Positions 17,337 to 55,561 of a stretch of DNA of 64,000 bases are shown piece by piece. The translations under genes and the position numbers were made by a program. The stretch is from Bacteroidales bacterium. GTDB lineage: Bacteria; Bacteroidota; Bacteroidia; Bacteroidales; JAIOZK01. The notes under the pieces were generated by a model. It worked only from the letters and a program-made list of their open reading frames with translations, did no database searches and was not told the origin of the DNA. The stretch covers positions 1 through 64,000 of the forward strand of contig JAIPBS010000015.1 of the NCBI GenBank assembly GCA_021738625.1, in the 5' to 3' direction. The first letter of the stretch is position 1. Each line of letters begins with the position of its first letter.

Positions 17337-17341
17337 GCCTG

Positions 17342-35300: not shown

Positions 35301-35738
35301 TTATACCGGCTCCGACAAGTTCGCCAGTTGGGGAATATGCAATTGTATCCAGGTATAGAACGGCAATATCTCATCCTGCAACTGATCAGGAAGTTTTTCC
35401 TTTATGATCTCATGCAGGGCGTTTAAAACAGCCGGCCAGTAAGCCAGTTGAAAACCATGTGAGCGATAGGCCCTGAATACCCATAACAAAGTTTCAACAA
35501 AAACCTGTGGATCGAATGCCTTAAATACGGATTCCATGAAACGCACTTGGTTGGCGTGGTTGTCGCGCATCATGGCAAGGTTTTCTTTGCCGATCATTTT
35601 TTTCAGGTCGTCGCGTTGCTCCAACCAGCGGTTTAGTTCCGACAACAGTTCATGGCTGTGCGCTGAAAATGTCCGGGCCGCCTCCTCAGAAGGTTGCCTG
35701 AGCTTAGCTGCATCTTTTATCAATTCTTTTTTTGTCAT
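35301..35738 (-). CDS. Hypothetical all-alpha protein (possible sensor or accessory protein)
   Basis: 145 aa, helical, no signal peptide, at the tail of the kinase array. I could not assign a family. Confidence 0.35.
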   Translation of the reverse strand: MTKKELIKDAAKLRQPSEEAARTFSAHSHELLSELNRWLEQRDDLKKMIGKENLAMMRDNHANQVRFMESVFKAFDPQVFVETLLWVFRAYRSHGFQLAYWPAVLNALHEIIKEKLPDQLQDEILPFYTWIQLHIPQLANLSEPV

Positions 35739-35864
35739 AAGTTCAAAATATTATACCGATTCGGAATAAGTTTGCAATGATTGACCTCCTGCTTCTATCG
35801 GTATAACTGAATCTAGCAGAAAAAAGCTTTGCATTTTTAATAAGATTCAGTATACATGATCATT

Positions 35865-36977
35865 TCATTTTCGTCCAAGAGCCGGCAACAGGAATATAAA
35901 CTCGGAACCTGCTCCCGCTTTGCTTTCAACGCGAATACTGCCTGCATGGGCATCAATAATCTTTTTCACAATAGCCAGACCCAGGCCGGTGCTTTTCTCA
36001 TCGGCTGTGGGCCGTACCGAAGTTTTGGAAAAGGTTTTGAACAACAGGGGCAATTCCTTTTCGGGTATTCCCGGCCCCTGGTCCTTAACAGAAACCCGGG
36101 CATATCCCCCCTTTTCCTTAAGCTCAACCTCTACATTTGTCCCTGCTTCGGAAAACTTAACGGCATTGGATAGCAGGTTATTCATCACCTGCTCGATTTT
36201 ACCCATATCCGCATTTACCGGCAAACTATCCAAAGCCGTCTTTATATCGATCCGAATATCCTTCTTATCTCCAAAAGGTTTGTTCAGGCGAATTGACTTG
36301 CTTACAAGTTGAAGCAAGTCAAAAACTTCCATATCGAGCTTCACCTTGCCCGATTCAATGCGCGCAAAATCCAGCAGCTCATTCAACAGATCCAACATAA
36401 ACTGGCTTTGCGATTCAAGGGTTTTCAGGATATCCATTTCTTCATCATTCAATCTGTCGCGCAATTCATCCTGCAAATAATCGGAATATGACATAACCAG
36501 GCCGATTGGGTTGCGCAGATCGTGCGCGGCAACGCCCAGAAACTCATTCTTCTGCTCATTCATCTGCTGAAGTTCCGTGTTTTTCTTGTACAACTCACGG
36601 CTAAGATTATTCAGCTCATTGTTGAGCGCGAGTAATTCCTGTCTAAGTTTGACATTTTCTTTTTCACTTTGTTCGCCCAAAACCAAGGTAAGCTCATCAT
36701 CTGTTTTATAAAAACTGAAATAAAATGTTTCGGGAAGATTTTCGGGCGTTTTCACATTCAGCAAAAGGGGGCCATTGCTCTCCAACAGCTTATCCAGGCT
36801 CAATTCACCGGTAAAATCAAGAATAAGGTTCCGGATATTTTTACCCACAATCTCAGCACCCAATATCCGTTCGGCAAAAACATTGGATTTTTTAACAAAG
36901 CCCCTTTCATCCATAAGCATCATGATGATACTTGCATGCTCATTGACATATTTATTCAGGATAGCCGACTTCTTCAT
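35865..36977 (-). CDS. Sensor histidine kinase (PAS - coiled coil - HisKA - HATPase)
   Basis: HisKA H-box (GVAAHDLRNPIG), with N, G1 and G2 boxes (NLLSNAVKFS, DQGPGIP, GLGLAIVKKI). Confidence 0.85.
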   Translation of the reverse strand: MKKSAILNKYVNEHASIIMMLMDERGFVKKSNVFAERILGAEIVGKNIRNLILDFTGELSLDKLLESNGPLLLNVKTPENLPETFYFSFYKTDDELTLVLGEQSEKENVKLRQELLALNNELNNLSRELYKKNTELQQMNEQKNEFLGVAAHDLRNPIGLVMSYSDYLQDELRDRLNDEEMDILKTLESQSQFMLDLLNELLDFARIESGKVKLDMEVFDLLQLVSKSIRLNKPFGDKKDIRIDIKTALDSLPVNADMGKIEQVMNNLLSNAVKFSEAGTNVEVELKEKGGYARVSVKDQGPGIPEKELPLLFKTFSKTSVRPTADEKSTGLGLAIVKKIIDAHAGSIRVESKAGAGSEFIFLLPALGRK

Positions 36978-36983
36978 TGCGCA

Positions 36984-37622
36984 TCAATTGTAATTTCCAA
37001 TAAATGACTCGAGTTCCTCAAGGCTCAGGATCAATTTAACCTCATCCATATTTTTAATTAGATTTTGACCTCCCCATCTGAATGCCTGACCTCCGACAAT
37101 TATGGATTGGGACGGAAAGTTTTCCCTGATCAGATCGACCATTTCCTTCATCACGGAAAAATTAAAAGAAACGCTAACGGACAATGCGATGATATCGGGC
37201 TTCCTTTCACTGATCATCGACAACACCTCGCTTTGTGGGGTATTGGCCCCAAGGAAATACCCATCCCATCCGTTCATCTCAAAGATATCCGCAACCATGC
37301 GCGCCCCCACCTGATGATACTCATTGGCCAGGCATGTAACAACCGCTCTTCTCCCTTTTCGCTCGGTACTGAACATGTATGGGTAAACCATACTCATTTG
37401 CCGCTCCACCAGTGAAGTTGCCAGATGTTCTGTGGCTACGCTTAATTTGTTGTGCTCCCATAGTTCCCCCACCTGATAAAGTGCGCGCTGAAAAAGATCT
37501 TTATAGATTTGCCTTATTCCAACCTCCTGATCAATCAAATGGTTAACCGTTGCAACAACTGCTTGCCGGTCGCCATCTAGCAGGGCCTCGAAATATTTAT
37601 TGTAAAGCTGATCCGTTATCAT
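36984..37622 (-). CDS. Stand-alone CarH-type cobalamin (B12)-binding photoreceptor-like domain protein
   Basis: An N-terminal four-helix bundle carrying Wx9EH (ELWEHNKLSVATEHLA) plus a Rossmann B12-binding domain with ExHxxG (ANEYHQVGARMVADIF..GWD). No DNA-binding domain. The start overlaps the stop of the hybrid kinase at 37619..39559. Confidence 0.7.
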   Translation of the reverse strand: MITDQLYNKYFEALLDGDRQAVVATVNHLIDQEVGIRQIYKDLFQRALYQVGELWEHNKLSVATEHLATSLVERQMSMVYPYMFSTERKGRRAVVTCLANEYHQVGARMVADIFEMNGWDGYFLGANTPQSEVLSMISERKPDIIALSVSVSFNFSVMKEMVDLIRENFPSQSIIVGGQAFRWGGQNLIKNMDEVKLILSLEELESFIGNYN

Positions 37623-39559
37623 TTTCGCCCGTTAAGGTATTTTGCGATTGTATCGAGCAGTTGATTTCTCCTGATCGGTTTTTTCAAATAATCGTTGCAA
37701 CCCGACTCCAGCACTTTGTCCCTGTCGGTTGAAAGGGCGTAGGCTGTTTGCCCGATGATGGGAACCTGCTTATCCAGTTTGCGTATTTCACGCGTTGCTT
37801 CGTATCCATTGAGTTCAGGCATTTGAATATCCATTAGAATAAGATCAACTTTTGATTGTTTATCAAACATTTCGACAGCCACCTTCCCGTTCTCAGCTCT
37901 GATCACCTTTGCCCCTGTCGGTTGTAAAATGGTCTCCACATATAGAAAATTGGAATCGACGTCTTCAGCTACCAGGATCACTCTATCTTTGAAATTGTAT
38001 TCCCCGGCAGATTTCTCTTGCAGCAGCCCCTTCTTTTCTCGTTCATGCCTTTTTGCTTTAGAGGGCAAGGAAAAATAAAAAGTTGAGCCCTGATAGAGTT
38101 CGGATTCAAGCCACATGCGGCCACCCATTTTTTCGACCAGGCTTTTGGCAATGGTCAGTCCCAGCCCGGTTCCTCCAAATTCCCTGGTATTGCTGTCATC
38201 AACCTGTCTGAAACGTTCAAAGATCACGTCTTGTTTTTCTTTCGGGATGCCCAGGCCGGTATCCATCACCCGGATAACAATTTCGTCATTTTCAATATAA
38301 CAGGCCAACTCCACCAATCCACTTTCCGTAAATTTAAATGCATTGCCAACCAGGTTGCGGATGATCTGCTCAATCCGGCCCGGATCGGTTCTAACCTGGG
38401 TATCATTGGGGGTTTCAAGACGGAATTTGAATTCAACATTTTTTATCCGATCGTTGAATTCCCGCAAAAGACTTTGATATACATCGCCGACCAGATCATT
38501 GATATCGACCCATTTCCGATCAACTTCGAGCAGACCGGCCTCCAACTTTGCCACATCAATGATGTCGGTTATAATGCGCAAAAGGGTTTCACTGTTTCGC
38601 TGTATGTTTTTCGTAAAATCACGGACATCTTCGCGGTTGAAAGCAGGATCACCCAGCAGGTCGGAAAAACCGATAATGGCATTCATGGGCGTCCTGATTT
38701 CGTGCGACATATTGGCCAGGAAAGCAGTTTTAAGCTTATCGCTTTTCTCGGCTTCCTCTTTGGCCTTGATCAATTCCTCCCTGGCCTTCTTGAGTTCGGT
38801 GATGTCGGCAATGATACCATCCTGAAACAAGTGATCGCCATCCGAATTAAAAATGGTCCGGATATTAAATGAACCCCAAAAACTGCTCCCATCCTTTCTT
38901 AACAGTTCAATCTCATAATTTCTTACCAGTCCGTCCTCATTCAGTTTATCCAATAATGCCTCTCTTTCTTCAGGCCTGACATAATAATCCCGGATCGGTT
39001 TTTCAAGCGCTTGCTCCAGTTGTTCAAAACCAAACATTTCAAGATAGGACGGGTTGGCATACAGCAGATATCCATCCAGGGTAGAACGATAAAGGGCCAG
39101 GGGGACATTGCTGCGCAAGCCTTCAAAGGCGGATTCGGTTTCCCTGAGCTTTTCCTCTGTCCTGCGTTTCTTGTCTGTTTCCTCTTTTCGTTTGAGGGCC
39201 TGTTCGATGGCAGGAGGCAATCTGTAAAGGCGTTCTTTTACCACATAATCCCAGGCGCCCGACTTGATGGTCTGCGCCGCGGTTTCTTCATCCAGCGAAC
39301 CCGTAACGATGATAATAGGCAGATCGGGATTGATTTTTTGCAAGTCGCTGATGGCTGAAATGCCATCATACTGCGGCAGGCCATAGTCGGAGATGACCAG
39401 ATCGGGGGACTCACTCTTGATGGCTTCCAGGTAATCAATTTTGTTATCCACACTGTGGAAATCAAAATTGAATCCGGCTTTTCGGAGTTCGCGGCAAATC
39501 AGTTCCACGTCAGCCTTCAAATCTTCCAGTATCAATAGTTTAAGTTGCTTTATCTTCAT
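37619..39559 (-). CDS. Hybrid sensor histidine kinase (REC-PAS-PAS-HisKA-HATPase-REC)
   Basis: N-terminal REC (LLILEDLKADVEL...ISDYGLPQYDG), PAS modules, HisKA (ANMSHEIRTPMNAI), HATPase, and C-terminal REC (ILVAEDVDSNF...LMDIQMPELNG). Confidence 0.9.
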   Translation of the reverse strand: MKIKQLKLLILEDLKADVELICRELRKAGFNFDFHSVDNKIDYLEAIKSESPDLVISDYGLPQYDGISAISDLQKINPDLPIIIVTGSLDEETAAQTIKSGAWDYVVKERLYRLPPAIEQALKRKEETDKKRRTEEKLRETESAFEGLRSNVPLALYRSTLDGYLLYANPSYLEMFGFEQLEQALEKPIRDYYVRPEEREALLDKLNEDGLVRNYEIELLRKDGSSFWGSFNIRTIFNSDGDHLFQDGIIADITELKKAREELIKAKEEAEKSDKLKTAFLANMSHEIRTPMNAIIGFSDLLGDPAFNREDVRDFTKNIQRNSETLLRIITDIIDVAKLEAGLLEVDRKWVDINDLVGDVYQSLLREFNDRIKNVEFKFRLETPNDTQVRTDPGRIEQIIRNLVGNAFKFTESGLVELACYIENDEIVIRVMDTGLGIPKEKQDVIFERFRQVDDSNTREFGGTGLGLTIAKSLVEKMGGRMWLESELYQGSTFYFSLPSKAKRHEREKKGLLQEKSAGEYNFKDRVILVAEDVDSNFLYVETILQPTGAKVIRAENGKVAVEMFDKQSKVDLILMDIQMPELNGYEATREIRKLDKQVPIIGQTAYALSTDRDKVLESGCNDYLKKPIRRNQLLDTIAKYLNGRK

Positions 39560-39561
39560 AA

Positions 39562-40017
39562 CTATTCAGATTTGTAATCCGGTATCTCATTCATCAACAG
39601 CCAGTAAAGGCCGATCTCAGCGACGGAATCAACAAATTTATTGTAATCAACCGGTTTTACGATATAACTATTCACACCCAGTTCGTAACTTTTCACCATA
39701 TCACGCTCTTCACGCGAGGTGGTTAACACAACTACCGGAATGTTTCTGGTTCGCTCGTTGCTTTTCACTTTTTCAAGCACTTCCAGCCCGGTAACTTTCG
39801 GAAGCTTTAAATCCAGCAGAATCAATTTGGGTAATTCGTTGTTGTTTCTATCTTTAAAGGTGTTTCTACAAAAAATGTAATCAAGCGCTTGTTCTCCGTC
39901 GCGAACCACATGCATGCGCACACCGAGCTTGTGCTTTTTCAGTGCGCGTTCTGTAAGTTCCACATCGTTAGGATTGTCCTCAACAAGCAATATTTCTGCT
40001 TTTTCGCGTATTTCCAT
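39562..40017 (-). CDS. Single-domain response regulator of the phytochrome-associated (Rcp1-like) type
   Basis: ILLVEDNPNDVELTERAL...LLDLKLPKVTGLEVLEKVK...PVVVLTTSREERDMV...NSYIVKPVDYNKFVDSV closely resembles stand-alone REC partners of photoreceptor kinases. Sits 2 nt upstream of the hybrid kinase. Confidence 0.8.
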   Translation of the reverse strand: MEIREKAEILLVEDNPNDVELTERALKKHKLGVRMHVVRDGEQALDYIFCRNTFKDRNNNELPKLILLDLKLPKVTGLEVLEKVKSNERTRNIPVVVLTTSREERDMVKSYELGVNSYIVKPVDYNKFVDSVAEIGLYWLLMNEIPDYKSE

Positions 40018-40061
40018 AGGACATTTTTTTTATAAATATAACATAATATTTTCAGCCTGAA

Positions 40062-41843
40062 TCATTCAGCATATGTTTTGGGTAGTGAGAAAGAAAAGCA
40101 GGCGCCCAGTCCGGGTTTGGCTTCCGCTTTCACCTCGCCTCCATGTTTTTTAACAATGCGTTTAACAAGCGCCAACCCAACGCCGGTTCCTTCAAATTGA
40201 TCGACTGTATGCAGACGTTGAAAAACATTAAAGAGCTTATCAACATATTTCATATCGAAGCCGACACCGTTGTCTTTGACTGAAATCCAGTGGTAAGCGT
40301 CGTTTTCTTCTGCCTTTATTTTTATTTGGGATTCACTTTCATTCCTTGTAAATTTAACGGCATTGGATATTAGGTTGAATAACACCTGCCTGATCAGATT
40401 TTCATCCCCTTCAACTTTCGGGAGAGGCGCTATATCAAAACTTAATTTTCTCTCTGCAGTTTCCTTGCTGACCTCATTTACAACATCATGCGTAATGCTT
40501 TGCAGGTCCAGCTTTCTTTTTTTCAGTTTTTTTCTTCCTGCTCTTGAAAAGTCCAGCAGATCCTGGATCAGATCGCCCATTTTCTGGGTATTTTCCCGCA
40601 CAATACGGAGGTACCTTTTTCCGTCTTCATTCAGTTTATCGGTATAATCTTCGAGCAAGATTTGAGAAAATCCGTCAATGGCCCTAAGGGGAGCCTTCAG
40701 GTCGTGGCTAACCGAATAGGAAAAAGCTTCCAGTTCCTTATTCACCTCTTCCAGCTTTTTGTTGATCCTGTTCATTGCTTCCCGGCTTTCATTCACATCT
40801 TCCAGCAAATAGGTCAGTGCCAACTGAGACTTTTCCAGGTCTTCTTTTTGATTTTTCAGTTCGCTTGTTCTTTTGTTAACGACCTGTTCGAGGTCCTTCG
40901 AGTAATCTTCAATTTTTTGTGCAGCTTTTTTCCGTTCAGAGATATCCCTTGCGACAATTAAAACATCATCTTCCTTGTTTTCACTTCTCATAATGGAAGA
41001 ACTAACCTCAACAGGTATATAGTCACCATCGGAATTAATGAATACCGATTCATACAAAAAAATTGCCTTTTCGTCTTTCATTCTTTTTTGTTGCCGGGCA
41101 ATGGTTTTCTTTCTGTATGAGGGCGCCACATAATCCATCACATTTGAACCGATCACATTGTGGGGGCCTTTACCGATCAGGTTCAAACCAGCCTGGTTTA
41201 AATATTTTATTTCGCCCTTGAGGCCGTGTATGCAGATGATATCACGGGCAGTTTCGGTGAGCAATCTATATCTGCGTTCGCTGGTTTTCAGGGCATTTTC
41301 CGCTTCCCTTACCTTTGTAATATCCTGGCCGAACTCGGCAACACCTATGATCCCGCCATTTTTATTTTTCACGGGTACGGATTTAAAACGATATATTTTC
41401 TCCCCTACCTTGACTTCTCTGTAATTTGTTTTTTTATTTTCCAGGGATTCCAACACGTGACAATTCCAGCAATGCGCATCCTGCCCTTCACGCCACACCG
41501 TATAGCAAATTTCTCCAATGCATTTATGAGCACGGTGCCCCAGATAATTAACTGCTGCCTGGTTGAGTATTTTAATCCTCAAATCCTTATCGTAATAGAA
41601 AAACAGATCATCAAGCGAATCTAAAATCCGGCTTCGCTCCGTCTCCAATCGTTCAAGCTTTTCATTCATCTGCCAAATGATGTCATAGCTATTTTCATAA
41701 ATCAACCTGATGTTTTCTTCTTTGTATTCAGGTTCTGTTCCCTTTTCGGATTCCAGCCCGGCATTCTCTTGCAGTTCAATAATTTTAGAAATCAACTGCT
41801 TTTTTGTAAGCTTGTAGTAACGTCTTATTTTTGCTTCGTCCAT
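40062..41843 (-). CDS. Multi-PAS sensor histidine kinase with a Cys/His-rich PAS insert
   Basis: PAS domains, HisKA (SVSHDLKAPLR), HATPase. The first PAS carries C108..C113..H124-C125-W-N-C128-H129 (CxxCH). Confidence 0.85.
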   Translation of the reverse strand: MDEAKIRRYYKLTKKQLISKIIELQENAGLESEKGTEPEYKEENIRLIYENSYDIIWQMNEKLERLETERSRILDSLDDLFFYYDKDLRIKILNQAAVNYLGHRAHKCIGEICYTVWREGQDAHCWNCHVLESLENKKTNYREVKVGEKIYRFKSVPVKNKNGGIIGVAEFGQDITKVREAENALKTSERRYRLLTETARDIICIHGLKGEIKYLNQAGLNLIGKGPHNVIGSNVMDYVAPSYRKKTIARQQKRMKDEKAIFLYESVFINSDGDYIPVEVSSSIMRSENKEDDVLIVARDISERKKAAQKIEDYSKDLEQVVNKRTSELKNQKEDLEKSQLALTYLLEDVNESREAMNRINKKLEEVNKELEAFSYSVSHDLKAPLRAIDGFSQILLEDYTDKLNEDGKRYLRIVRENTQKMGDLIQDLLDFSRAGRKKLKKRKLDLQSITHDVVNEVSKETAERKLSFDIAPLPKVEGDENLIRQVLFNLISNAVKFTRNESESQIKIKAEENDAYHWISVKDNGVGFDMKYVDKLFNVFQRLHTVDQFEGTGVGLALVKRIVKKHGGEVKAEAKPGLGACFSFSLPKTYAE

Positions 41844-41870
41844 TTGTTCTGAAAAACCTCTCTTTATTAT

Positions 41871-43394
41871 CTAATCCGTATCATTATCTTTACTTGTTCC
41901 CAACTGAGATTCAAGCTTTTTCATTCGTTCTTTAAGTTCATTAATCCTGAATTCCCTGTCAACAAACAGCTTATTGAAATGCTTGAGTTCCTTATTTTTC
42001 TCCACAAGGCTATTGTTTGCTTGTTCTAATTCTGCGGTTCTTTCACGAACCAGTTCCTCCAGCTTCTCTTTATGTTGCTGAACCTCTTCCTTTGCCATGT
42101 GAAGTTCTGTAACATCCATAACCGTTGAAACCATGGTGTTTTGATCGAACAATGGAATATTGACTGCATTGATAAACCGTTTATTACCATCTTTTGTTGT
42201 GGCTACAATATTCTCCCAGTGCATGCGGGAGGGATCACCGGAGGCAACATCTTGTTTTACCTGGGCTGCAATCTTTTCCCTGTAAGTCCTATCAGGATAT
42301 GCTTTTTCAAAAAAACTATTGATATCTTTCAAATCTTCTCTAGGCCAGCCGTATATTTCAGAAAACTTATCATTAATATAGGTGGCGATTCCTTCATCAA
42401 ACTCATTCAATGCAAGGCCAATAGGAAGATTGTCAAGCACGGTTTCAACAAATTGATTTTGCTTTTCGAGAGCCAATTTTACCTTAACCCTTTCAGTAAC
42501 ATCCTGCACCGTTCCGGTTATTATTGTCACTTTACCGGATTTATTCTTAACCGGTGTTCCTATGGCATGATAATAAGCTATTTTTCCATTAGGCAAATTA
42601 ACGCTTAAATCAATGTCGTAAGGCTTTGATTTCGTTACAGCGTTGCTGATGCATTTTTCAAGCGCCTTCACATCTGTGGGACTATGATAAGCCATCACCT
42701 CCTTGTAATCAGGCGGACCCAGTTTGGGATCGCGTTCATACAATTCATACATCATATCGGCCCACCATACCTTGCCTTTCTCAACATCAAATTCCACATG
42801 TCCGATCCGGGCAATTCTCTGAGCTTCACTGAGTCTTCTTTCGTTTTCCTGCAAAGCTATATCAGCATTTTTCTTATCAATGACCAAAGAGGCATGCTGA
42901 ATAAACGCTTCTATTTCACCGAAATTTGATGTATCGGTTTGTGGCTTGGTGAGTATGCTGATATTGGCAAATACCTTTGCGTTTCTTCTAATTGCCATGC
43001 AATACAATTCTTCCAACGACAGCAGTTTTTTCACCTTTTCGGCACTTGATTTATTGATCTTATTTCCGAAAAACAAAGGAAGGTTCAACTCCACCTTCAC
43101 CAATTTACCTTTGATGATCTCATAGTAAAAATCCGTTTTGATCTTCCCCCTGATCTTCCTGAAATCGAAACCCAGGAGATCGATAACTTTATGCATTTGA
43201 TTGCCGACGCCTTTGATCGCATGCAATTTCCAGAAATCATCTTCCGTATCATAATCAACAAGGGTCACAATGCCTCGACCACCCATCATCCGGTATATCT
43301 CCTCAACCAGATATTTGTACACCTCATCAATGGAACTTAACTCCTGCAAATAGAGGATTGTTTTGCCTAAATCAATATGATCGGTTTTGCCCAT
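41871..43394 (-). CDS. Kinase-less GAF/PAS signalling protein with C-terminal coiled coil
   Basis: GAF-like N-terminus, two PAS domains, no H-box or ATPase. C-terminus ...LVRERTAELEQANNSLVEKNKELKHFNKLFVDREFRINELKERMKKLE. Confidence 0.75.
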   Translation of the reverse strand: MGKTDHIDLGKTILYLQELSSIDEVYKYLVEEIYRMMGGRGIVTLVDYDTEDDFWKLHAIKGVGNQMHKVIDLLGFDFRKIRGKIKTDFYYEIIKGKLVKVELNLPLFFGNKINKSSAEKVKKLLSLEELYCMAIRRNAKVFANISILTKPQTDTSNFGEIEAFIQHASLVIDKKNADIALQENERRLSEAQRIARIGHVEFDVEKGKVWWADMMYELYERDPKLGPPDYKEVMAYHSPTDVKALEKCISNAVTKSKPYDIDLSVNLPNGKIAYYHAIGTPVKNKSGKVTIITGTVQDVTERVKVKLALEKQNQFVETVLDNLPIGLALNEFDEGIATYINDKFSEIYGWPREDLKDINSFFEKAYPDRTYREKIAAQVKQDVASGDPSRMHWENIVATTKDGNKRFINAVNIPLFDQNTMVSTVMDVTELHMAKEEVQQHKEKLEELVRERTAELEQANNSLVEKNKELKHFNKLFVDREFRINELKERMKKLESQLGTSKDNDTD

Positions 43395-43541
43395 AATGTA
43401 TTAATCATTGTTTTGTTAACATCTCATTTATACTGAATCTTATTGAAAAAGCAAAGCATTTTCTGTTAGATTCAGTTATACCGATGGAAGCATAAGGTCA
43501 ATCATTGAAAACCTGTCCCGAATCGGTATAATTTAGGCAGA

Positions 43542-47441: not shown

Positions 47442-47606
47442 AACGATGGTTCTTTATAATAATGCCAACCATGCCAACCATGTAAAATCAACAGGACATG
47501 GGCGCATGGGAAGATTTACTTTTACATCAAAGATAAAGAATTAAATCAGTTATGTAAATAGGTAAATTACCTAATTATAAGTTGTTGAACCAAAAGAACA
47601 ATTGGA

Positions 47607-48335
47607 TTAAATCAAAAAGCTCAGATCGCTTCTGGGCTCAAATTCTTTAGGCTCCTCACCAAACTTAAACAACCTCAGGGGTTTTGCACCGCCCAATGTA
47701 ATTTTGCCATCCTCGACAAGCAGGTAGGAACTTTCCCGTAAACCGGCTACGGTGATCTCCCGGTTCACCACCAGGAATTCCTCAATCCGTTGCTGCCTGG
47801 TTTCGCCTGCATGACCGTCAGGATTTGCATCCAGATAATGAGGATTGATCTGGAAGGGGATCAGGTTGAAACAACCGAAGTTTTCGGGCTCGATAATAGG
47901 CATGTCGTTGGTTGTTCGCAAACTGGGGCAGGCCACGTTTGAACCGGCGCTCCAACCCATATAAGGGGTGCCCTCCAAAACTTTTTCACGAATGGCTTTC
48001 ATCAGCCCGAGCTTATGAAGCATATAAACCAGGTAAAAGGTATTGCCTCCTCCAACAGCAATGGCTTCGGCATCTTCAACCGCCCGTATGGGATTCTCGA
48101 ACTTATGTATCGAATATAGGTCGTAGCCGATTTCGCTGTAAACCGCTTTTACTTTCTTTTCGTATGCATCGAAGGAATGTTCCAGGCTTTCGTCAGAGAG
48201 CCCAACTCCCGCAAAGGGGATAAAAAGCACACTTCTTGCTTCCGTTCCGTTGAGGAATTCTTTAATGGCCTCCCGGGGCCAACCCAGGTATTCTTCTCCT
48301 GCATTCGTAGAATTACTGATCAATAACAATTTCAT
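47607..48335 (-). CDS. pepE: Dipeptidase E (peptidase S51)
   Basis: Collinear with E. coli PepE (LLLISNST...FIPFAG...VGGGNTF...GWSAGSNVACP..TTNDMPI..FQINPH..GHAGETR). Confidence 0.85.
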   Translation of the reverse strand: MKLLLISNSTNAGEEYLGWPREAIKEFLNGTEARSVLFIPFAGVGLSDESLEHSFDAYEKKVKAVYSEIGYDLYSIHKFENPIRAVEDAEAIAVGGGNTFYLVYMLHKLGLMKAIREKVLEGTPYMGWSAGSNVACPSLRTTNDMPIIEPENFGCFNLIPFQINPHYLDANPDGHAGETRQQRIEEFLVVNREITVAGLRESSYLLVEDGKITLGGAKPLRLFKFGEEPKEFEPRSDLSFLI

Positions 48336-48347
48336 AATGTTTTCCTT

Positions 48348-51300
48348 TCAAAAATATTTACCAATAAGATTCAACAATTTATTTTTAGCTATGGGTTTTG
48401 AGATGTAAGCATTGCAACCGGCATCCAGACACTTTTGCTCATCTTCCACCATGGCGTATGCCGTTTGAGCAATAACAGGCAAATTCTTCCGAATTTCCCT
48501 GATTCTTTCCGTTGCCTCATAGCCGTCAAGTATGGGTAATTGAATATCCATCAATACGATATCGATCTTTGAATTGTTCCGGACCTGCTCCACGGCTTCC
48601 CGTCCGTTTTTCGCCCAGCATATCTCAATGCCGGTTCTTTTGAATATGGTTTTCAGATAAAAGAAGTTCGATTCGTCATCTTCAACGATTAAAATTGTTT
48701 TATCGGCCCAATCCGCACTTTTTTTCTTTGAGGGATTTTCAACCGTTTTCCCAAACTCAGCGTTCGGTTTTTTATCCGGGATCGTAAAAACAAAACGCGA
48801 GCCTTTACCTACTTCGGACCATAAGTGAATGCCGCCGCCCATTTTCTCCAGCAGGTTTTTACAAATGGTCAAACCCAGCCCTGTTCCTCCAAACTCCCGT
48901 GTATTGGAACCATCCACCTGTATGAAGCGATCAAATATGCGTTCCTTCATTGCCTTGTCGATCCCCATTCCGGTATCTTCAACGAAGAATTCAAGGTTTT
49001 CTCCTTTAGGCACATAACCAAACTCCACATATCCTTCTTTTGTGAACTTCAGGGCATTGTCGATTAGGTTAGTAAGAACCTGGCGCAATCTCTTTTTATC
49101 TGTCAAAATAAAGCAATTTTCATTGGGAACCTTTAATTTAACATCCAGTAGCTTCTTTCTTTGTCCATGCAGATTTTTCGAATAAAAAGCATACAGTTCA
49201 TTCAAAAGTTCCTGCACATTGCATCCGGACTCATAGATAGCCAGTTCTCCTGCTTCGATCTTGGCAACATCAATGATATCATTGATGATATTAAGCAATT
49301 GATTGCCCGAGGAGTTAATTATGCGTACATATTCTTTTCTTTCTTCCGGATCGATGTCGGCAGCCAGCAACTCGGCAAATCCCAGGATGCCATTGAGCGG
49401 AGTACGAATTTCATGTGACATATTGGCCAGGAAAGCTGTTTTGATGCGGTCGGATTCTTCGGCTTTATCTCTTGCAATTTTTAGCTCCTCATTCTGTTTT
49501 TTGATCAGGGTTTCGTATTCCTTTTGCCTGCTAACGTCACGGCAAACCGTTACCCACACCTTTTCGCCCCTGTAGTTGTATTTCCGGCTATGGACTTCCA
49601 TGGGAAATCTTTCACCGTTTTTTCTGAGGCCAAGCACCTCATAAGGTTTGGAATAACTGGATTTCATATACCTACCGGCCAGCTCCCTCGACTCGGGAGC
49701 AACAATTTCAAGACCGTGGATGCCGATAAGCTCCTCATAGGAATATCCGAACATTTCGCAGGCAGCCGTATTGGTTTCAATACTTTTCTTATCCTTTGAA
49801 AAAAAGATGGCTTCCCTGGCGGCCCGGGCGAGTGCACGCGTGCGTTCTTCACTTTCTGCGAGGCTCTTTTCGGTCAACACACGTTCCGTTACATCCATGA
49901 TAACGCCTTCGAGATGAACCAGTTCATCCTCCTTATAAACTCCTATACCAACTTCATTTACCCACCTGTATTTACCATCTTTATTTAAAATTCTGTAATC
50001 TATGATATATGGTGTTTTCTGCCTTACGCCCCTGTCAACTTTCTTGTGCACATGGTCGCGGTCTTCGGGATGGATCAAATCGTCGAATGAAACTTCACCT
50101 TTTAGGAATTTTTGTTTATTATAACCCGTCAGCCTCAAAATATTGTCATTCAGATAGGTCATGGTGTAATCTTTATCATTTAAACAGATATAGATCACAC
50201 CTGGAAAATTCTCGGCCAACAGCCTGAATTTCTGTTCCGATTCCTTTAACTCATCTTCAACGCGCTTTTTCTCAATGAGATGGCCGACCTGCTTGGCGAT
50301 CAGTTCAAACACATTTAGATCCCTCAAGCCAAAGGCATTCTCATCTTTGTAGTTCTGAACGACCATCAATCCGCTCACTTTGCCTTTCACATAAAGCGGC
50401 GCTCCCATCCAAACTTTGGCCGGGGTGCCCACCAGTTCAATAACGCCCTCATTCTCGAGCTGTTTAAGCTCCGGGCGTTTTAACAGGGTAGGTTCTTGTT
50501 TTGATATCACATGTGCCGTCACTGTTTTCCTGGCAGGGAATTCCTGAAATTTATCCTCCTCATCTATAATGTAGGGCAATGAGAGTGTATCTGTTTCTTC
50601 ATTGTAGAGGGCAACATAGAAATTGGAAGAATCCAGCACATGGGACAATTCGCTTTTTATTGTTTTCAATAAATCCGTCAGAACACTTCCTGATAAAACG
50701 GCATTGGTAATATTGAGGATGATATCCTGAATGATCCGGTTGTATTTCTGCTCGGTAACATCTCTTACAATCCCCACCATGCGTTGCAGTTTTCCCTCCC
50801 GGTTTTTTATCCCGAAGCATTTTTCCTGCAACCACAAGGTTTTACCCGATCGCAATACGATACGGTATTCGAAGTTGATAGAATCTTTGCTTTTAAGTGA
50901 TCCGAATTGATCATCCACCAGATCAACATCATCCTGATGGATCAAATTACTCCATGTATTCCGGTCTTTCAGAAATTCTTCTTCGACAATACCGGTTATT
51001 TTTCTTATGGCGGGTGAAACATAGAGGAATTTATCCCGGATCAGATCACCTATCCAAAAAATATCATCAATTGCATTGGATATTTGCCTGAATTTCAATT
51101 CGCTTTCCAGTAACGCTTTCTCGGCATTCTTCCTATTATGTATATCAACTGCGGTGCCCAATACAACTGTTTCACCTCCGAATTCAACCCTTCCATTCGA
51201 AATTTCAACCCACTTACTTTCATTGTTTTTTGTAACGATCTTGAACTCGTAATTGCTGATCGGGTCATCTCCTTGTGCGCGCCGGGAACCTCTTTCTTTT

Positions 51301-52319
51301 ACAATCGCCCTGTGATCGGGATGAACCAGATCGTAAAAATGCATATTGAGCAATTCACCCTCACTATAACCTGTTATCCGGGTCATGGCACTGTTAACAT
51401 AATTTAAAACGCCATCCTTTCCAAAGGTATAAACTCCGCTTTGCAAATGTTTTGTGAGTACCTTAAAGCGCTCCCGTTCATTTTCGATGATCTCCTTATC
51501 TTTTTTACTTCTCGAAATATCACGCAAAGATCCGTCGTAGGCAATGACCCGGCCATTTTCATCATAGATGGCATTGGTGTTATCGATGGCCCAAAACGTG
51601 CTGCCGTCTTTTCTTTTCAGCTCGATCTCCGCATCTTTCAGTGTACCGATCTTATCAAGTTGGTATTGCTGGTCTTTTCTTTTTGATTGGTGGACATAGA
51701 AATCTGCGACCTTTTTTCGCTTTAACTCTTCAGCATCATCAAATCCAAGCAGTTTTACCAGCTCGGGATTTACCTCCAGAAATACCCCACCCGGAGTGGT
51801 GCGGTAAAGGCCGACCGGTGCATTGTTAAAGAATTTTTCAAAACGTTCTTCAGTTCTTTTAAGGGCTTCGGAAGTTTTCATCCACTCGGCTATGTTCCTG
51901 GTAATGGTGAAGATGTACTTTTCGCCTTCAATTGAAAACAAACTTGCCGACATCAAACCGGATTCGACGATTCCGTTTTTCAGCCTGAATTTTGAAATAA
52001 AATAATTGACCCGGCCACCTTTCAAAAGTTCTTCAACCAGCCGGTTGCGCTCAACGGCAGCAGACCAAACACCCACATCTGTAGAGGATTTGCCCTTCAC
52101 ATCCTTCTCAGTGAAACCTGTGAGCCTGGTGAAGCCCGCATTTACCCGCACAAATACACCATCTTTTAAACGCGTTATGGCAAGTGCATCGGGGTTGGTC
52201 CGGAAACTCTGTTCAAATAACTCAGGATTATTATAAAGGTCAGGAGGAATGATGTCGCCATCCTTATCCGGTTTTTGGCTTTTCTCCTTCTCGCTTCTTT
52301 TATGATACTTATCAATCAA
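48348..52319 (-). CDS. Giant hybrid sensor histidine kinase (multi-PAS/GAF - HisKA - HATPase - REC)
   Basis: 1323 aa with at least six PAS modules and a GAF, HisKA (ANMSHEIRTPLNGILGF), HATPase (GTGLGLTICK), and C-terminal REC (ILIVEDDESNF...LMDIQLPILDG). Confidence 0.9.
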   Translation of the reverse strand: MIDKYHKRSEKEKSQKPDKDGDIIPPDLYNNPELFEQSFRTNPDALAITRLKDGVFVRVNAGFTRLTGFTEKDVKGKSSTDVGVWSAAVERNRLVEELLKGGRVNYFISKFRLKNGIVESGLMSASLFSIEGEKYIFTITRNIAEWMKTSEALKRTEERFEKFFNNAPVGLYRTTPGGVFLEVNPELVKLLGFDDAEELKRKKVADFYVHQSKRKDQQYQLDKIGTLKDAEIELKRKDGSTFWAIDNTNAIYDENGRVIAYDGSLRDISRSKKDKEIIENERERFKVLTKHLQSGVYTFGKDGVLNYVNSAMTRITGYSEGELLNMHFYDLVHPDHRAIVKERGSRRAQGDDPISNYEFKIVTKNNESKWVEISNGRVEFGGETVVLGTAVDIHNRKNAEKALLESELKFRQISNAIDDIFWIGDLIRDKFLYVSPAIRKITGIVEEEFLKDRNTWSNLIHQDDVDLVDDQFGSLKSKDSINFEYRIVLRSGKTLWLQEKCFGIKNREGKLQRMVGIVRDVTEQKYNRIIQDIILNITNAVLSGSVLTDLLKTIKSELSHVLDSSNFYVALYNEETDTLSLPYIIDEEDKFQEFPARKTVTAHVISKQEPTLLKRPELKQLENEGVIELVGTPAKVWMGAPLYVKGKVSGLMVVQNYKDENAFGLRDLNVFELIAKQVGHLIEKKRVEDELKESEQKFRLLAENFPGVIYICLNDKDYTMTYLNDNILRLTGYNKQKFLKGEVSFDDLIHPEDRDHVHKKVDRGVRQKTPYIIDYRILNKDGKYRWVNEVGIGVYKEDELVHLEGVIMDVTERVLTEKSLAESEERTRALARAAREAIFFSKDKKSIETNTAACEMFGYSYEELIGIHGLEIVAPESRELAGRYMKSSYSKPYEVLGLRKNGERFPMEVHSRKYNYRGEKVWVTVCRDVSRQKEYETLIKKQNEELKIARDKAEESDRIKTAFLANMSHEIRTPLNGILGFAELLAADIDPEERKEYVRIINSSGNQLLNIINDIIDVAKIEAGELAIYESGCNVQELLNELYAFYSKNLHGQRKKLLDVKLKVPNENCFILTDKKRLRQVLTNLIDNALKFTKEGYVEFGYVPKGENLEFFVEDTGMGIDKAMKERIFDRFIQVDGSNTREFGGTGLGLTICKNLLEKMGGGIHLWSEVGKGSRFVFTIPDKKPNAEFGKTVENPSKKKSADWADKTILIVEDDESNFFYLKTIFKRTGIEICWAKNGREAVEQVRNNSKIDIVLMDIQLPILDGYEATERIREIRKNLPVIAQTAYAMVEDEQKCLDAGCNAYISKPIAKNKLLNLIGKYF

Positions 52320-52390
52320 TGCCTATATCAATTTGCTTTCGTTTCAAACGAACATATACAACAATGCTCAACACAACAAATGTAAAAAAA

Positions 52391-55108
52391 TTAATTTTGT
52401 GTGTCTTGCCCATCATCCGTTTTTGGACCGCCTGAAAGATTCAGCTTTACGATTTGCCAACGGTAAGACCTTTTAAAAAAGCTAAACCACTTTTCGGAAT
52501 GCGTATAATTTTCAATTTTTTGTTTGTAGTCGATCTCGCTTTCCGGCTGATAATCATCCAGGGCAAGTGCAATGCCAACCGCTTTCTGCTGGTCAACAGT
52601 TTCGTGACGCGACAGACCCATTTCTTTCAGCACAAAAAGCATTTGTAGCGCAGGACGGGGGCGGCTGCTATTCATAAAATATCCGATGCTTGCAAATACG
52701 AGATCCGGGCTTTGTTGTTCAAGTAGAAATTGTTCGAAATGATCGTGCCTTATACCATAGCGTGTAATGTTGTTTTGAATATAAAACGTATCCAGGCGAA
52801 GATACTCAGGGATGACTGCAGAAAAGCCCTGCTCAAAGATATTATCCCTGATCCGTTTCATGCTTTTCTGATATTCGGAAACGGTAGCATATTTCTGAAT
52901 TGCTTGCAATGGGATACTATCTGTAAAATCACATTCATCCAGGGTTTTAAGTAGGTTCAATGCTTTTAAAAACTGCTCTTCCGCAGCCACGAAATCCCGT
53001 TTATCAACCAGGTTGAAACCCTGCATCACCACTTTTTCATAATCATTGATCCGTTTGTCGCAAATTAAAATATTCAGTTTCTCCCTGATTTTGTTCAGCT
53101 CCGTGCGATAATAAGGATCCAATTCGAGCCGGTAAAGTTGCATGTGTTCCTGCAAGCGTGTGAATTTGGGATAGGCATTTTGCAGGTCCTCGTTCCATAT
53201 GCTGAAACTAACCTCATACAGAAGCTTATCTCCAAGCATCCTTGCTGCTTTTTCGATGAGGCTGTCGATATTTGTAAACTGCGAGGCGTCAAGCGCTTTA
53301 TTGTCCCGAAGCTTGTTCAACTCTTCAAGCGCCTCCTTATATCCGCCCTTTCGGATCAGTTTTTCGCATTGGGAGATCAGTGCGATTTGGGCGGTGAATT
53401 CCACCTGATCAATATTTTTTCCAGGTTGGGATTGCACCACATCTTCATCCCCGTGTTTGTCAGCCTGGTATTGTTCCGCTTTATTCAACCATTTTCGGGC
53501 GGCTGAATACTCGCCTTTATTGAAAAGGGCACTGGCTTCGGCCAGGCATTTTTCATACATGGCCTGCCAGGCCTTAAGCTTAAGTTCACTGTAATTTTTT
53601 CGATTTAGCTTTACCGCAGGATTTTCCTCAATGATCTGTCTGGATTTGTCCAGATTTGCCAGTGCATCCTCATAATACTTTTTGTCGATCAAAGCAGCCG
53701 CATCCTTAAGGTAAGCATCAGCCATTTTACCATAAGCATTCCAAATCCCAAGTTTGTTGATGATATGCTTGCTGTTGTTTTCCTGGAAATTTTCTGCACG
53801 ACTCAGATAGATTTCCGCCATACTGTAATTACCGACCTCAATTGCCTTGATCGCCACGCTGAGCAATGAATTGTACAGACCGCTGATGGCTCTGGCCTGC
53901 TTGGTCCGTATCAAATCCCTGTTGCATTCGGCTTCCGTCGAATTGCAGAAGGAATTAAGTCCCTCAACAAATTCAAGGGCTTCATTGTAGTTCTCATTTC
54001 CAATACAATAATCGATCAGGATGAGATAGTTTTCGTAAAACAGTTTACTCATCCCGGCAATGTCCGGTTCAGTATCGATTTTATATTTCAGCAGGCGTTG
54101 CAGATTGCTGAAAAAATCCTTGATCTCTTCGCTGCTGTATTTCCTGGAAAGCAGGTCGTAAAAGGAATTCTCAAAGTAATGGCCGGCTTTGGAAGCCATG
54201 TGCATATATTGCTCAAGCTGCTTAAAATAAGGATAAAAATAATTACCGGGAACCCCTGCCCGGGCAACTCTTTGTTTGTTATAAATCTCTTGCTCAAACA
54301 ATGTATTCAGCCGCCCCGTTTTTAAACTAAAATCCTGTAGTTGATTGTAGAAGAATAAAGGATCATGATCCCGGTTGATATTGAGTTCGGTAAGAAATAC
54401 CTTTCTTGCAAGTATCTTATAAACCTGTTTAAAATCGAAAGGCAGGACTGCAAATTTCAGCAGGGCGTCATCTGCACCTTCATCCAGCTTCTTGAGTTGA
54501 TCAAGCAGTTGATCCAGGATCATGGACGATCCGTAATAATCGTTGATCAAGTCCATTCTCCGGACAAAGGCTTTACGGTCTTCCTGGCTGTAATAAAAGC
54601 GCAAGTCAGAAAGCTCAAGTCTAAGGTCCGCATTCCCGGTTCTGAACCGGATTGCGGCACTGATCCCCTTTCCGTTCAGATTTGCTGTTATGGTTTTTGC
54701 GAGAACGATCCGATCCTCTTTATCAAAACAATAAACCCGGAACTCGGCCATGGAGGGTTGTAAAATATCGGCAATATCGAATTTTCTGTAGGCCGTCGCT
54801 CCCTGAACCTCGGCAACATGAATATCAACAATAGCTTCCAGGATGTTTTCTTTCTCAAGAATATCGAGATCAGCGGTATATCCAAGAGAATAATTGACTG
54901 AAGAAACAGCCATCCCTTGCGATAAGGCAATTTCGTTTATAAAATAGGAGGTATTGAAAGATTTCGCATCAGGATGACTAATATTGGAAAAAACATATTT
55001 CCCACTGATCTCATTATGAAACAGATTTTTACCCTGTGCGAAAACAATATCCTGAAATGGAAAGCAAAGCAACAAACAAGCAATAAGCCTAAAAATCATG
55101 TAAAGCAC
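52391..55108 (-). CDS. Large secreted hypothetical protein (alpha-helical, TPR-like)
   Basis: 905 aa with signal peptide (CFPFQDIVFAQ) and a Y/A/L-rich helical repeat character. It is the first gene of the co-directional array, 71 nt upstream of the giant kinase. Confidence 0.5.
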   Translation of the reverse strand: MLYMIFRLIACLLLCFPFQDIVFAQGKNLFHNEISGKYVFSNISHPDAKSFNTSYFINEIALSQGMAVSSVNYSLGYTADLDILEKENILEAIVDIHVAEVQGATAYRKFDIADILQPSMAEFRVYCFDKEDRIVLAKTITANLNGKGISAAIRFRTGNADLRLELSDLRFYYSQEDRKAFVRRMDLINDYYGSSMILDQLLDQLKKLDEGADDALLKFAVLPFDFKQVYKILARKVFLTELNINRDHDPLFFYNQLQDFSLKTGRLNTLFEQEIYNKQRVARAGVPGNYFYPYFKQLEQYMHMASKAGHYFENSFYDLLSRKYSSEEIKDFFSNLQRLLKYKIDTEPDIAGMSKLFYENYLILIDYCIGNENYNEALEFVEGLNSFCNSTEAECNRDLIRTKQARAISGLYNSLLSVAIKAIEVGNYSMAEIYLSRAENFQENNSKHIINKLGIWNAYGKMADAYLKDAAALIDKKYYEDALANLDKSRQIIEENPAVKLNRKNYSELKLKAWQAMYEKCLAEASALFNKGEYSAARKWLNKAEQYQADKHGDEDVVQSQPGKNIDQVEFTAQIALISQCEKLIRKGGYKEALEELNKLRDNKALDASQFTNIDSLIEKAARMLGDKLLYEVSFSIWNEDLQNAYPKFTRLQEHMQLYRLELDPYYRTELNKIREKLNILICDKRINDYEKVVMQGFNLVDKRDFVAAEEQFLKALNLLKTLDECDFTDSIPLQAIQKYATVSEYQKSMKRIRDNIFEQGFSAVIPEYLRLDTFYIQNNITRYGIRHDHFEQFLLEQQSPDLVFASIGYFMNSSRPRPALQMLFVLKEMGLSRHETVDQQKAVGIALALDDYQPESEIDYKQKIENYTHSEKWFSFFKRSYRWQIVKLNLSGGPKTDDGQDTQN

Positions 55109-55121
55109 CTTCCTGAAAAAG

Positions 55122-55205
55122 TGCCCAAGAAAGGACTCGAACCTTCACGAGCATTCGCTCACTACACCCTGAATGTAGCGCGTCTACCAATTCCGCCACT
55201 TGGGC
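55122..55205 (-). tRNA. tRNA-Leu (anticodon CAG)
   Basis: Reverse complement folds as a cloverleaf: acceptor GCCCAAG/CTTGGGC, D-arm GCGG..AATTGGTAG, anticodon stem CTACA/TGTAG with loop TTCAGGG, a long variable arm, T-loop TTCGAGT, discriminator A. Confidence 0.85.
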
Positions 55206-55332
55206 AATTTACTTGTTAAGAACGTTATATTATACTGCAAAGTTAGTAAAAATCGAACTCTAAAGATTTTCTATTTTTCGGAGCTTGCACTCTTTCATGC
55301 TCCGTCGTATCATTACAATGAACAATTTTGTG

Positions 55333-55416
55333 TGCCCAGGACAAGAATCGAACTTGCACGTCCTAACGGACACATGGCCCTCAACCATGCGCGTCTACCA
55401 GTTCCGCCACCTGGGC
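55333..55416 (-). tRNA. tRNA-Leu (anticodon GAG)
   Basis: Reverse complement: acceptor GCCCAGG/CCTGGGC, anticodon stem CATGG/CCATG with loop TTGAGGG, a long variable arm, T-loop TTCGATT. Confidence 0.85.
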
Positions 55417-55561
55417 TGATGTTTTTAATGAACGCCGCTTTTTCAAAAGCAAGTGCAAAATTATAAAAAATTAACAAAATGATAAATCTTTAAATAAGTT
55501 TAATTCATATCCATGATGCTACGATTTTATATTTTTGCAAATCAAACCTAAACAACAGATT

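Follow-up and report, generated by a model that had tools for sequence, protein, structure and literature searches.

The window analysed in this work is a stretch of 64,000 nucleotides (nt) from an uncultured Bacteroidales bacterium (assembly GCA_021738625.1, contig JAIPBS010000015.1, positions 1 to 64,000), and it contains a long array of genes for histidine kinases and other signalling proteins. A first description made from the letters alone (the sequence-only reading) had reported ten consecutive minus-strand genes at 35865-55108, separated by -4 to 165 nt, with two tRNA-Leu genes directly upstream on the same strand. The coordinates of the open reading frames (ORFs) and of the tRNAs bear this out, and they add a co-directional eleventh gene (35301-35738) that the description had missed. 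We number the genes g1 to g11 in order of transcription. Judged by sequence comparison, the whole array appears to be a lineage-specific concatenation of separately evolving signalling modules, not one conserved machine, and its conserved core is the promoter-distal triad g9-g10-g11, which encodes a stand-alone cobalamin-binding protein, a kinase and a globin-fold protein.

All the genes of the run are on the minus strand. It opens with tRNA-Leu (GAG) at 55332-55416, followed by tRNA-Leu (CAG) at 55121-55205. The first protein gene, g1 (52391-55108), codes for 905 amino acids (aa) from a GTG start, or 902 aa from an alternative ATG at 55099, and begins 13 nt (GTG) or 22 nt (ATG) past the 3' end of tRNA-Leu (CAG). 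Then come g2 (48348-52319), a 1323-aa hybrid histidine kinase with six PAS domains, a GAF domain (residues 547-683), HisKA, HATPase and REC; g3 (47607-48335), a 242-aa dipeptidase E (PepE, Peptidase_S51) located 12 nt after g2; and g4 (43542-47441), a 1299-aa protein without transmitter that consists of an N-terminal coiled coil, six PAS domains plus a weak one, a PocR domain (561-722) and a coiled-coil tail. The 507-aa product of g5 (41871-43394) also has no transmitter and combines an N-terminal domain (1-180), two PAS domains and a coiled-coil tail. Downstream are g6 (40062-41843), a 593-aa soluble kinase (two PAS, HisKA, HATPase), g7 (39562-40017), a 151-aa response regulator with a REC domain only, and g8 (37619-39559), a 646-aa hybrid kinase with the order REC-PAS-HisKA-HATPase-REC, whose end overlaps the start of g9 by 4 nt. 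The triad is formed by g9 (36984-37622, 212 aa), g10 (35865-36977), a 370-aa kinase with a PAS-like N-terminal domain (about residues 1-110), a coiled coil, HisKA and HATPase, and g11 (35301-35738, 145 aa), 126 nt downstream of g10. From g1 to g10 the successive gaps are 71, 12, 165, 147, 27, 44, 2, -4 and 6 nt. Hydrophobic segments are absent from g2 to g10, which are therefore predicted to be soluble cytoplasmic proteins, and only the N-terminus of g1 has one.

Domain annotation with Pfam and NCBIfam upheld the labels that g2, g3, g4 and g6 to g10 had been given from sequence alone. The two kinase-less PAS proteins, g4 and g5, indeed lack a transmitter, and the embedded dipeptidase g3 scores 301 bits against the NCBIfam PepE equivalog NF003642 (cut-off 156). 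The view of g1 as a secreted protein also stands, with a hydrophobic, signal-peptide-like N-terminus followed by a helical TPR-like body that matches no Pfam or NCBIfam family. Sensor modules had been overcounted. An iterated PAS profile found 17 PAS domains (six each in g2 and g4, two each in g5 and g6, one in g8), to which Pfam adds one GAF (g2) and one PocR (g4); with two weak PAS-like stretches (g4 residues 723-872 and the N-terminus of g10) this gives about 20-21 modules in place of the more than 30 PAS/GAF modules announced. The GAF label of g5 could not be verified: its residues 1-180 match no Pfam family at E<=1 and align by hhalign to GAF or PAS profiles with less than 1% probability, and a single-sequence AlphaFold2 (AF2) model of it was unusable (predicted local distance difference test, pLDDT, 43). 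The array totals four kinase cores, four REC domains and no output domain. H, N, G1 and G2 boxes are intact in the kinases, among them g2 (confirmed in g6 for the H and N boxes only), and the Asp, Thr and Lys residues are intact in all REC domains.

The most informative protein of the array is g9. Pfam recognises in it a four-helix-bundle B12-binding_2 domain (PF02607, E 5.9e-16) followed by a Rossmann-type B12-binding domain (PF02310, E 7.8e-19), and it belongs to a family of stand-alone proteins of about 210 aa with 1781 matches at E<=1e-10, whose members are found, at about 50% identity to g9, across Bacteroidota, Desulfobacterota, Eremiobacterota and others. Two motifs, W55x9E65H66 and E101xH103xxG106, show no variation among 24 homologs with 48-92% identity to g9. 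The Wx9EH motif caps the upper axial adenosyl group of adenosylcobalamin (AdoCbl) and E/DxHxxG is the motif of the lower axial His; their joint occurrence defines the CarH-type domains of AdoCbl photoreceptors, and MetH has no Wx9EH (PMC8156234). The light signature of SignatureFinder, which has been validated by experiment, consists of four elements (GxxW, EH, GxxH and GxxxP; PMC11796333), and g9 has three of them, G52xxW55, E65H66 and G125xxxP129. Furthermore, in the comparison of the family profile with the Protein Data Bank (PDB) the best solved relatives were the photocobilins (8j2w/8j2x/8j2y), with E 4.9e-28 for 8j2w/8j2x, ahead of MetH (1.4e-14) and CarH (1.5e-5). These entries correspond to SasPcob and AbDPcob; photocobilins have been described that put an enzyme domain under the control of light (PMC10979010). 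The best NCBIfam match of g9 was the CarH model, far below its cut-off. The 212 aa hold the two B12 domains and no MerR-type DNA-binding domain, therefore g9 is not a CarH repressor; we read it as a CarH/photocobilin-type domain that is predicted to bind AdoCbl. The B12 label of the sequence-only reading was thus correct, and what it did not recognise was the CarH/photocobilin type and the globin partner.

A different role has to be considered for g9, that of a corrinoid carrier for a methyltransferase or of a dark sensor of cobalamin availability or redox state reporting to g10. Many homologs bear the name "methanogenic corrinoid protein MtbC1" at the Joint Genome Institute (JGI), and the B12-binding_2 plus B12-binding architecture is common to MtaC, MtbC and MetH. 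Against this, neither the window nor two of the compared loci (L025 and L026) have an adjacent methyltransferase gene, g9 is far closer to the photocobilins than to corrinoid proteins, and the NCBIfam corrinoid-protein models all scored far below their cut-offs. The invariant Wx9EH is not a feature of MetH-type domains (PMC8156234), and g9 is constantly partnered with a kinase or GGDEF protein instead of an enzyme from one-carbon metabolism. We consider this explanation unlikely as a whole, and its methyl-carrier version, unlikely too, was rejected on the lack of an adjacent methyltransferase in these loci, the invariant motif and the corrinoid-model scores; points that favour its dark-sensor version are taken up below with the globin.

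The gene order around relatives of g9 was examined in eighty fetched metagenome loci (designated here by L numbers), 47 of which had at least 1200 nt downstream of the B12 gene. Directly after this gene, 45 of the 47 have a gene with a g10-type N-terminal domain: in 41 it encodes an ortholog of g10 over the full length (30-48% identity, beginning near residue 7), in three a GGDEF protein and in one a PAS-kinase-REC protein. In the GGDEF proteins (RxGGEEF; L059 3834-4766, L062 10645-11577 and L073 10635-11588) the g10-type domain and its coiled coil are fused to the cyclase domain, and a fourth such fusion follows the B12 gene in L089 (10649-11599), which had too little flank to be counted among the 47. 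In L081 (10471-12633) the same two elements are fused to PAS-kinase-REC. Because the domain is swapped between these contexts, the N-terminus of g10 would be an input domain dedicated to the B12 module, with interchangeable outputs. Desulfonatronum has the B12-kinase pair as well, and the triad was met in a further Bacteroidetes contig. In Desulfonatronum parangueonense (L025 15767-16636) two KaiB genes and a KaiC-like gene are located some 6 kb away from the pair, and two PAS kinases occupy the space between; this neighbourhood may link the B12 sensor to a clock-like system.

The third member of the triad, g11, scored 23.2 bits against the Pfam Globin model (cut-off 22) and its AF2 model reached a pLDDT of 96.5, so that both profile and model place it in the globin fold. 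Homologs of g11 (43-49% identical) were found in 17 of the 38 B12 loci with room for the gene and in 20 loci overall, after the kinase or GGDEF gene in 18 (at 7-60 nt in 12 of them) and before the B12 gene in the other two; a globin is also beside the B12 gene in L023 and L026. An exhaustive profile search among 1.84 billion representatives gave 572 relatives of g11 at E<=1e-3. Eleven of these are 366-382 aa long with the globin at residues 1-146, and in all seven of the long ones tested (7/7) the globin is followed by B12-binding_2 and B12-binding. In one of them, P0328, the N-terminus is 36% identical to g11 and the C-terminus 42% identical to g9. Given these fused relatives, g9 and g11 look like the split form of a fused globin-B12 protein. 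A separate observation concerns P0269 (258 aa), in which a g11-type globin is fused directly to REC, a hint that this globin talks to two-component proteins.

A narrow g11 profile had no match at E<=10 among the PDB sequences. With a broad family profile the best match was the globin domain of 8j2w (residues 214-319, E 0.21), followed by the biliverdin-binding smURFP and phycocyanin. In this alignment, at E 0.21, the near-invariant W86 of g11 falls on chain residue 290 of 8j2w, which with the offset of 6 seen for Trp61 corresponds to Trp296 of SasPcob, the residue that forms a hydrogen bond with the corrin. The 32 residues from D59 to Y91 of g11 resemble the distance between Asp and Tyr in phycocyanin, a likeness of spacing alone.

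Anatomy, motifs, folds, fusions and gene order were computed here, and from them we infer cofactor binding, light response, protein contacts and phosphotransfer routes. By analogy with the control of GGDEF domains by photocobilins in cis and in trans, the widely conserved B12 protein, kinase and globin trio at the far end of the array probably senses light. Without light, g9 carrying AdoCbl, alone or together with g11, would hold the N-terminal domain of g10 in one state; in the light, photolysis of the Co-C bond would alter the g9/g11 assembly, and the PAS-like N-terminal domain of g10, receiving this signal, would switch autophosphorylation of the kinase. As g5 to g10 are nearly gap-free, g10 would be co-transcribed with g6, g7 and g8 and could form with them a multi-kinase network, in which the REC of g7 and the N-terminal REC of g8 are the likely phospho-acceptors for g6 and g10. 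More speculatively, g4 and g5 might modulate the kinases through the coiled-coil tail that they share, and g1, g2 (an independent PAS hybrid kinase) and g3 would be neighbours and not obligatory parts. We put the probability of this explanation as a whole, a modular array with a split B12/globin sensor kinase, at about 0.6.

The sequence-only reading had proposed instead a single integrated phosphorelay or signalling complex made of all ten genes, with multiple inputs, with functional parts for the PAS-only proteins and PepE, and expressed as one unit. Several features agree with it: the genes are co-directional with gaps of at most 165 nt, and they provide four kinase cores and four receivers among them with no output domain. 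Hybrid kinases with a C-terminal REC, an intact H box and its Asp, as in multi-step phosphorelays, are encoded by g2 and g8. However, a scan that covered the genes of the array, most of the remaining ORFs of the window from 145 aa upward and the C-terminus of the neighbouring hybrid kinase (E<=1) found no histidine phosphotransfer (Hpt) domain, therefore the array is not a canonical phosphorelay. No response regulator with an output domain is encoded within the array, where g7 is the only REC-only protein. The nearest output-bearing regulator is a sigma-54 activator (30490-31848), paired with its own hybrid kinase and separated from the array by an opposite-strand Usp gene.

Multi-kinase arrays of this kind recur. 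The triad is located inside co-directional arrays with several kinases in the unrelated contigs L033, L104, L064 and L043, and L066 and L080 are likewise kinase-rich. In L033, with gaps mostly of a few tens of nt, the order is kinase (560 aa), hybrid kinase (1665 aa, three GAF plus PAS), hybrid kinase (732 aa), B12 protein, kinase, globin, REC-kinase (386 aa) and hybrid kinase (1220 aa), an array similar enough to the present one to speak also for an integrated system. L043 holds the full triad and a pair like g6 and g7, and also a second, partial B12-binding match (17341-17676, 43% identical over 112 aa) after a 1159-aa hybrid kinase. Across 16 B12 loci of at least 15 kb we counted about 1.4 kinase-like genes per 10 kb, several times the typical genome density. 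Stand-alone photoglobins beside B12-binding genes in multi-kinase operons have been described before, and multi-kinase cascades proposed for them (PMC8717448). Within our array, g4 and g5 end in the same coiled-coil tail (LE.LV.ERTAE...NKLFV.RE.RI.ELKE; coding regions 43545-43700 and 41871-42050), for which Pfam has no family; the motif begins in a similar way ahead of the dimerization and histidine phosphotransfer (DHp) helix of g6, and L021, a Cloacimonadota contig, has matches to the C-terminal parts of g4 and g5 alike. Kinase-to-kinase wiring is plausible with the N-terminal REC of g8 and the REC-only g7, and a multi-kinase network seems a reasonable reading for g5 to g11. For g1, g2 and PepE we found no evidence of belonging to that network. 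The earlier proposal thus survives as a plausible network of part of the array, and we find no support for one integrated phosphorelay that spans the ten genes.

Synteny was compared to see how far the arrangement is kept. A single relative (contigs L107 and L023) has the order g1 to g11 with its flanks, and the order was found nowhere else; the proteins of this relative share 89-99% identity with ours, g4 excepted (61%). This conservation of the full order would count for an integrated system, but synteny at about 90% identity must be considered uninformative. Actually, even at this distance the sensor genes differ: g4 of the relative has 1550 aa, 251 aa more than here, and its g6 carries a clean extra block of 231 aa with two PAS domains. 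Its gaps are also different (g3-g4 473 nt, g1-g2 172 nt, g4-g5 51 nt). PAS arrays thus appear to be remodelled very quickly between close relatives. A scan of 185,579 GTDB species representatives with g4 gave no ortholog, and its matches (32-68% over segments) were all at the level of PAS domains; no intermediate relatives were present in the collections searched. No homologs of g1 were found outside its own lineage, so this gene would be a lineage-specific ORFan. PepE and g1 are present in none of about 100 fetched loci of related kinases or B12 proteins, and PepE is probably a passenger gene.

Most of these results weigh against integration of all ten genes. In addition to the uninformative synteny, the ORFan g1 and the missing Hpt, PepE is a housekeeping-type equivalog that adjoins 0 of about 100 related loci, the g3-g4 gap contains a promoter-type motif and is widened to 473 nt in the relative, a repeat has been inserted into the g4-g5 gap in this lineage only, and the PAS numbers of g4 and g6 differ between close relatives. 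We find the ten-gene relay quite unlikely. The kinase array is unusual, as the sequence-only reading had said, and its interpretation of that fact was overstated.

The opposite explanation is a pure juxtaposition, in a genome rich in PAS kinases, of unrelated genes and self-contained systems of one kinase each, which would not cross-talk anywhere, g5 to g11 included. Modules do show separate conservation. Most occurrences of the B12-kinase pair, whether the globin is there or not, have no neighbouring hybrid kinases, and a g6-like kinase followed by a g7-like REC (53-62% identical) is a recurring sub-module in L014, L022 and L043, without a B12 gene in the first two; the fast turnover of the sensor arrays fits as well. 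Yet g8 and g9 overlap by 4 nt and gaps of 2 and 6 nt separate other genes within g7 to g10, g8 has a REC at its N-terminus, g7 is a REC without output, and both the density of about 1.4 kinase-like genes per 10 kb and the recurrence of such arrays in L033, L104, L064 and L043 would be left aside. This explanation is in our opinion quite unlikely as well, and we keep the modular array with a networked part, g5 to g11, as the better one.

A sigma-70 promoter scan is unsuited to Bacteroidota, so we used the Bacteroidetes-type promoter motif TAnnTTTG, searched as a consensus match only. The motif is located before each tRNA-Leu, at 55245 for the CAG gene and at 55463, about 47 nt upstream and together with an upstream TTTG, for the GAG gene; it also appears in the g1-g2 gap and in the g3-g4 gap, there in the form TTTA-N-TAnnTTTG. 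Start codons of the array have no Shine-Dalgarno sequences. As the 13-22 nt in front of g1 leave no room for a promoter of its own, g1 is probably co-transcribed with tRNA-Leu (CAG). No minus-strand terminator-like sites were found in the gaps of the array, a point that also suits a single expression unit, and g5 to g11 are probably one transcript, given the tight gaps, the lack of such sites and a repeat that explains the wider gap between g10 and g11. In the whole window Rfam at gathering thresholds recognised two tRNAs only, with no cobalamin riboswitch or other RNA family.

The repeat just mentioned is an element of about 110 nt, not assigned to a strand, with one copy in the g10-g11 gap (35750-35859) and an inverted copy in the g4-g5 gap (43424-43532). 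The two are 88-89% identical and bracket g5 to g10; whichever strand is read, the element folds as a pair of neighbouring hairpins (z -2.9 and -4.6). The g10-g11 copy is shared with the relative and the other is present in this genome only. The element looks like a small mobile one resembling repetitive extragenic palindromic (REP) sequences or miniature inverted-repeat transposable elements (MITE). Its insertion would account for the 126 nt between g10 and g11 versus the 7-60 nt of most other loci. We also considered whether the 74-nt inverted repeats that flank g5 to g10 are the ends of an invertible or mobile 7.6-kb segment; the idea was rejected, and two copies of a small repeat were preferred, because the relative keeps the gene order without one of the copies and no recombinase is nearby. 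Another family, a 45-nt "direct repeat" (D1, 36153-36197 and five other sites), coincides with the HATPase N-box coding region of the window kinases, with one 60% copy falling in an ABC-transporter gene, and was discarded as a regulatory repeat since its copies are conserved N-box coding sequence.

Several observations weigh against the light-sensing network described above. The case for co-transcription of g5 to g11 is drawn only from spacing and the absence of terminator-like hairpins, and the 126-nt gap with its repeat interrupts the spacing between g10 and g11. A hybrid kinase is directly upstream of the B12 gene in only about 4 of 35 loci; the triad appears autonomous on this account, and a wiring of g10 to g7 or g8 would be specific to this lineage at best. 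Binding of AdoCbl by g9, the light response and every contact between the proteins are themselves inferred. The GxxH element of the light signature reads N100-E-Y-H103 in g9, with the His kept and the Gly lost. The match of g11 to the photocobilin globin (E 0.21) is not significant by itself, and the closest structural neighbours of its model are haem-binding sensor globins and not the photocobilin; the near-invariant H94 sits at a possible proximal-His position. The homologs named by source come mostly from anaerobe lineages (Desulfonatronum, Desulfonatronovibrio, Desulfobacterales, Flexistipes, Cloacimonadota) and several B12 loci derive from sediment samples; light is limited in such habitats and O2-dependent biliverdin synthesis doubtful in such hosts. 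Finally, g11 reads M56-M57-R58-D59 (MxRD) where photoglobins and phycobiliproteins carry the bilin-linking Cys of CXQD/CXRD, with the Met invariant and the Asp at least 90% conserved; the Cys position is not universally conserved according to the photoglobin paper (PMC8717448).

The anaerobic sources with their sediment loci, and a globin without the bilin Cys whose nearest folds are haem gas or redox sensors, are also the points that favour a dark sensor reporting to g10. They further lead to another reading. The homologs named by source belong mainly to lineages of non-phototrophic anaerobes (Bacteroidales, Desulfobacterota, Cloacimonadota, Flexistipes). As an invariant Met replaces the Cys and O2-dependent biliverdin synthesis is unlikely in such hosts, the triad could be a widespread, uncharacterised class of sensor kinase that feeds the g5-g11 network with some ligand or signal other than bilin plus B12 light sensing. 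The signal may then be the cobalamin form, the redox state, a gas bound through the globin, or AdoCbl photolysis alone. We regard this alternative as possible, though on the improbable side.

The closest known systems are the photocobilins and the predicted photoglobin/B12 "light-sensing bundle" of Schneider et al. (PMC8717448); domain architecture, motifs, fold, fusions and synteny speak for placing the locus with them. The fusion of globin and B12 domains defines both the photoglobins (PMC8717448) and the characterised photocobilins (PMC10979010). As in photocobilins, g9 has B12-binding_2 and B12-binding with CarH-type motifs and fused relatives of g9 and g11 exist, and as in AbDPcob the output partnered with the B12 module can be a GGDEF cyclase; unlike them, g9 and g11 are separate proteins with a kinase gene between, and the output is a histidine kinase. 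The stand-alone globin beside a B12 gene among several kinases resembles the photoglobin operons, apart from the Met of g11 in place of the Cys of CXQD and an uncultured Bacteroidales as host; the main text of that paper does not mention Bacteroidetes (PMC8717448). With CarH and LitR, g9 shares the Wx9EH cap and the ExHxxG lower-ligand motif, and it differs from them by the absence of the MerR domain, the weak match (E 1.5e-5) and an output that would go through a kinase instead of DNA binding. Globin-coupled sensors (DosC, GsGCS, AfGcHK, HemAT) also partner a globin with a kinase or cyclase. Their globin is fused to the output and binds haem via the proximal His, whereas g11 is stand-alone and always accompanies a B12 protein, and weak sequence signals point to bilin-binding globins instead. 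The soluble PAS-rich kinases, the REC-only g7 directly after g6 and the N-terminal REC of g8 are found in multi-kinase networks, and the array differs from phosphorelays with hybrid kinases in having neither Hpt nor an output-bearing regulator. Phytochrome Cph1 with the REC-only regulator Rcp1 is an example of a kinase with a partner of this type, and g7 may resemble Rcp1.

Outside the array the window has the aspect of an ordinary chromosome, as indicated by the neighbours Ffh, FolD and the succinyl-CoA ligase beta subunit. Genes with type IX secretion system (T9SS) sorting domains, a SusC-like receptor and DUF4301 are also nearby, and an identical protein is recorded from a Bacteroidales metagenome-assembled genome; with the start codons that lack Shine-Dalgarno sequences, this points to an uncultured Bacteroidales bacterium as host. 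An encapsulin shell gene (Linocin_M18, 27594-28388) is located downstream of the hybrid kinase/sigma-54 regulator pair, and in the relative (L023 17310-20034) genes for an EncFtn-like cargo, HSP20 and a methyltransferase accompany the encapsulin. The genes of this region are candidate targets of the neighbouring hybrid kinase/sigma-54 system.

Altogether, the locus seems to belong to a known kind, described computationally and experimentally untouched, and its ten-gene array would be a lineage-specific accretion. Tight co-directional packing of PAS kinases can arise by lineage-specific accretion of modules together with fast gain and loss of PAS domains, a reason for caution, and such packing alone does not indicate one integrated relay. 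To our knowledge, B12 photoreceptors have been understood so far through CarH repressors and two photocobilins, and we know of no studied case in which a B12/globin sensor drives a histidine kinase. The triad offers a clean split system of three small soluble proteins in which to see how a cobalamin sensor talks to a two-component kinase, and it allows asking whether such sensors work in anaerobes that are expected to lack biliverdin. If the triad does feed the g5-g11 network, it would merge its signal in this lineage with about 20 PAS-type inputs.

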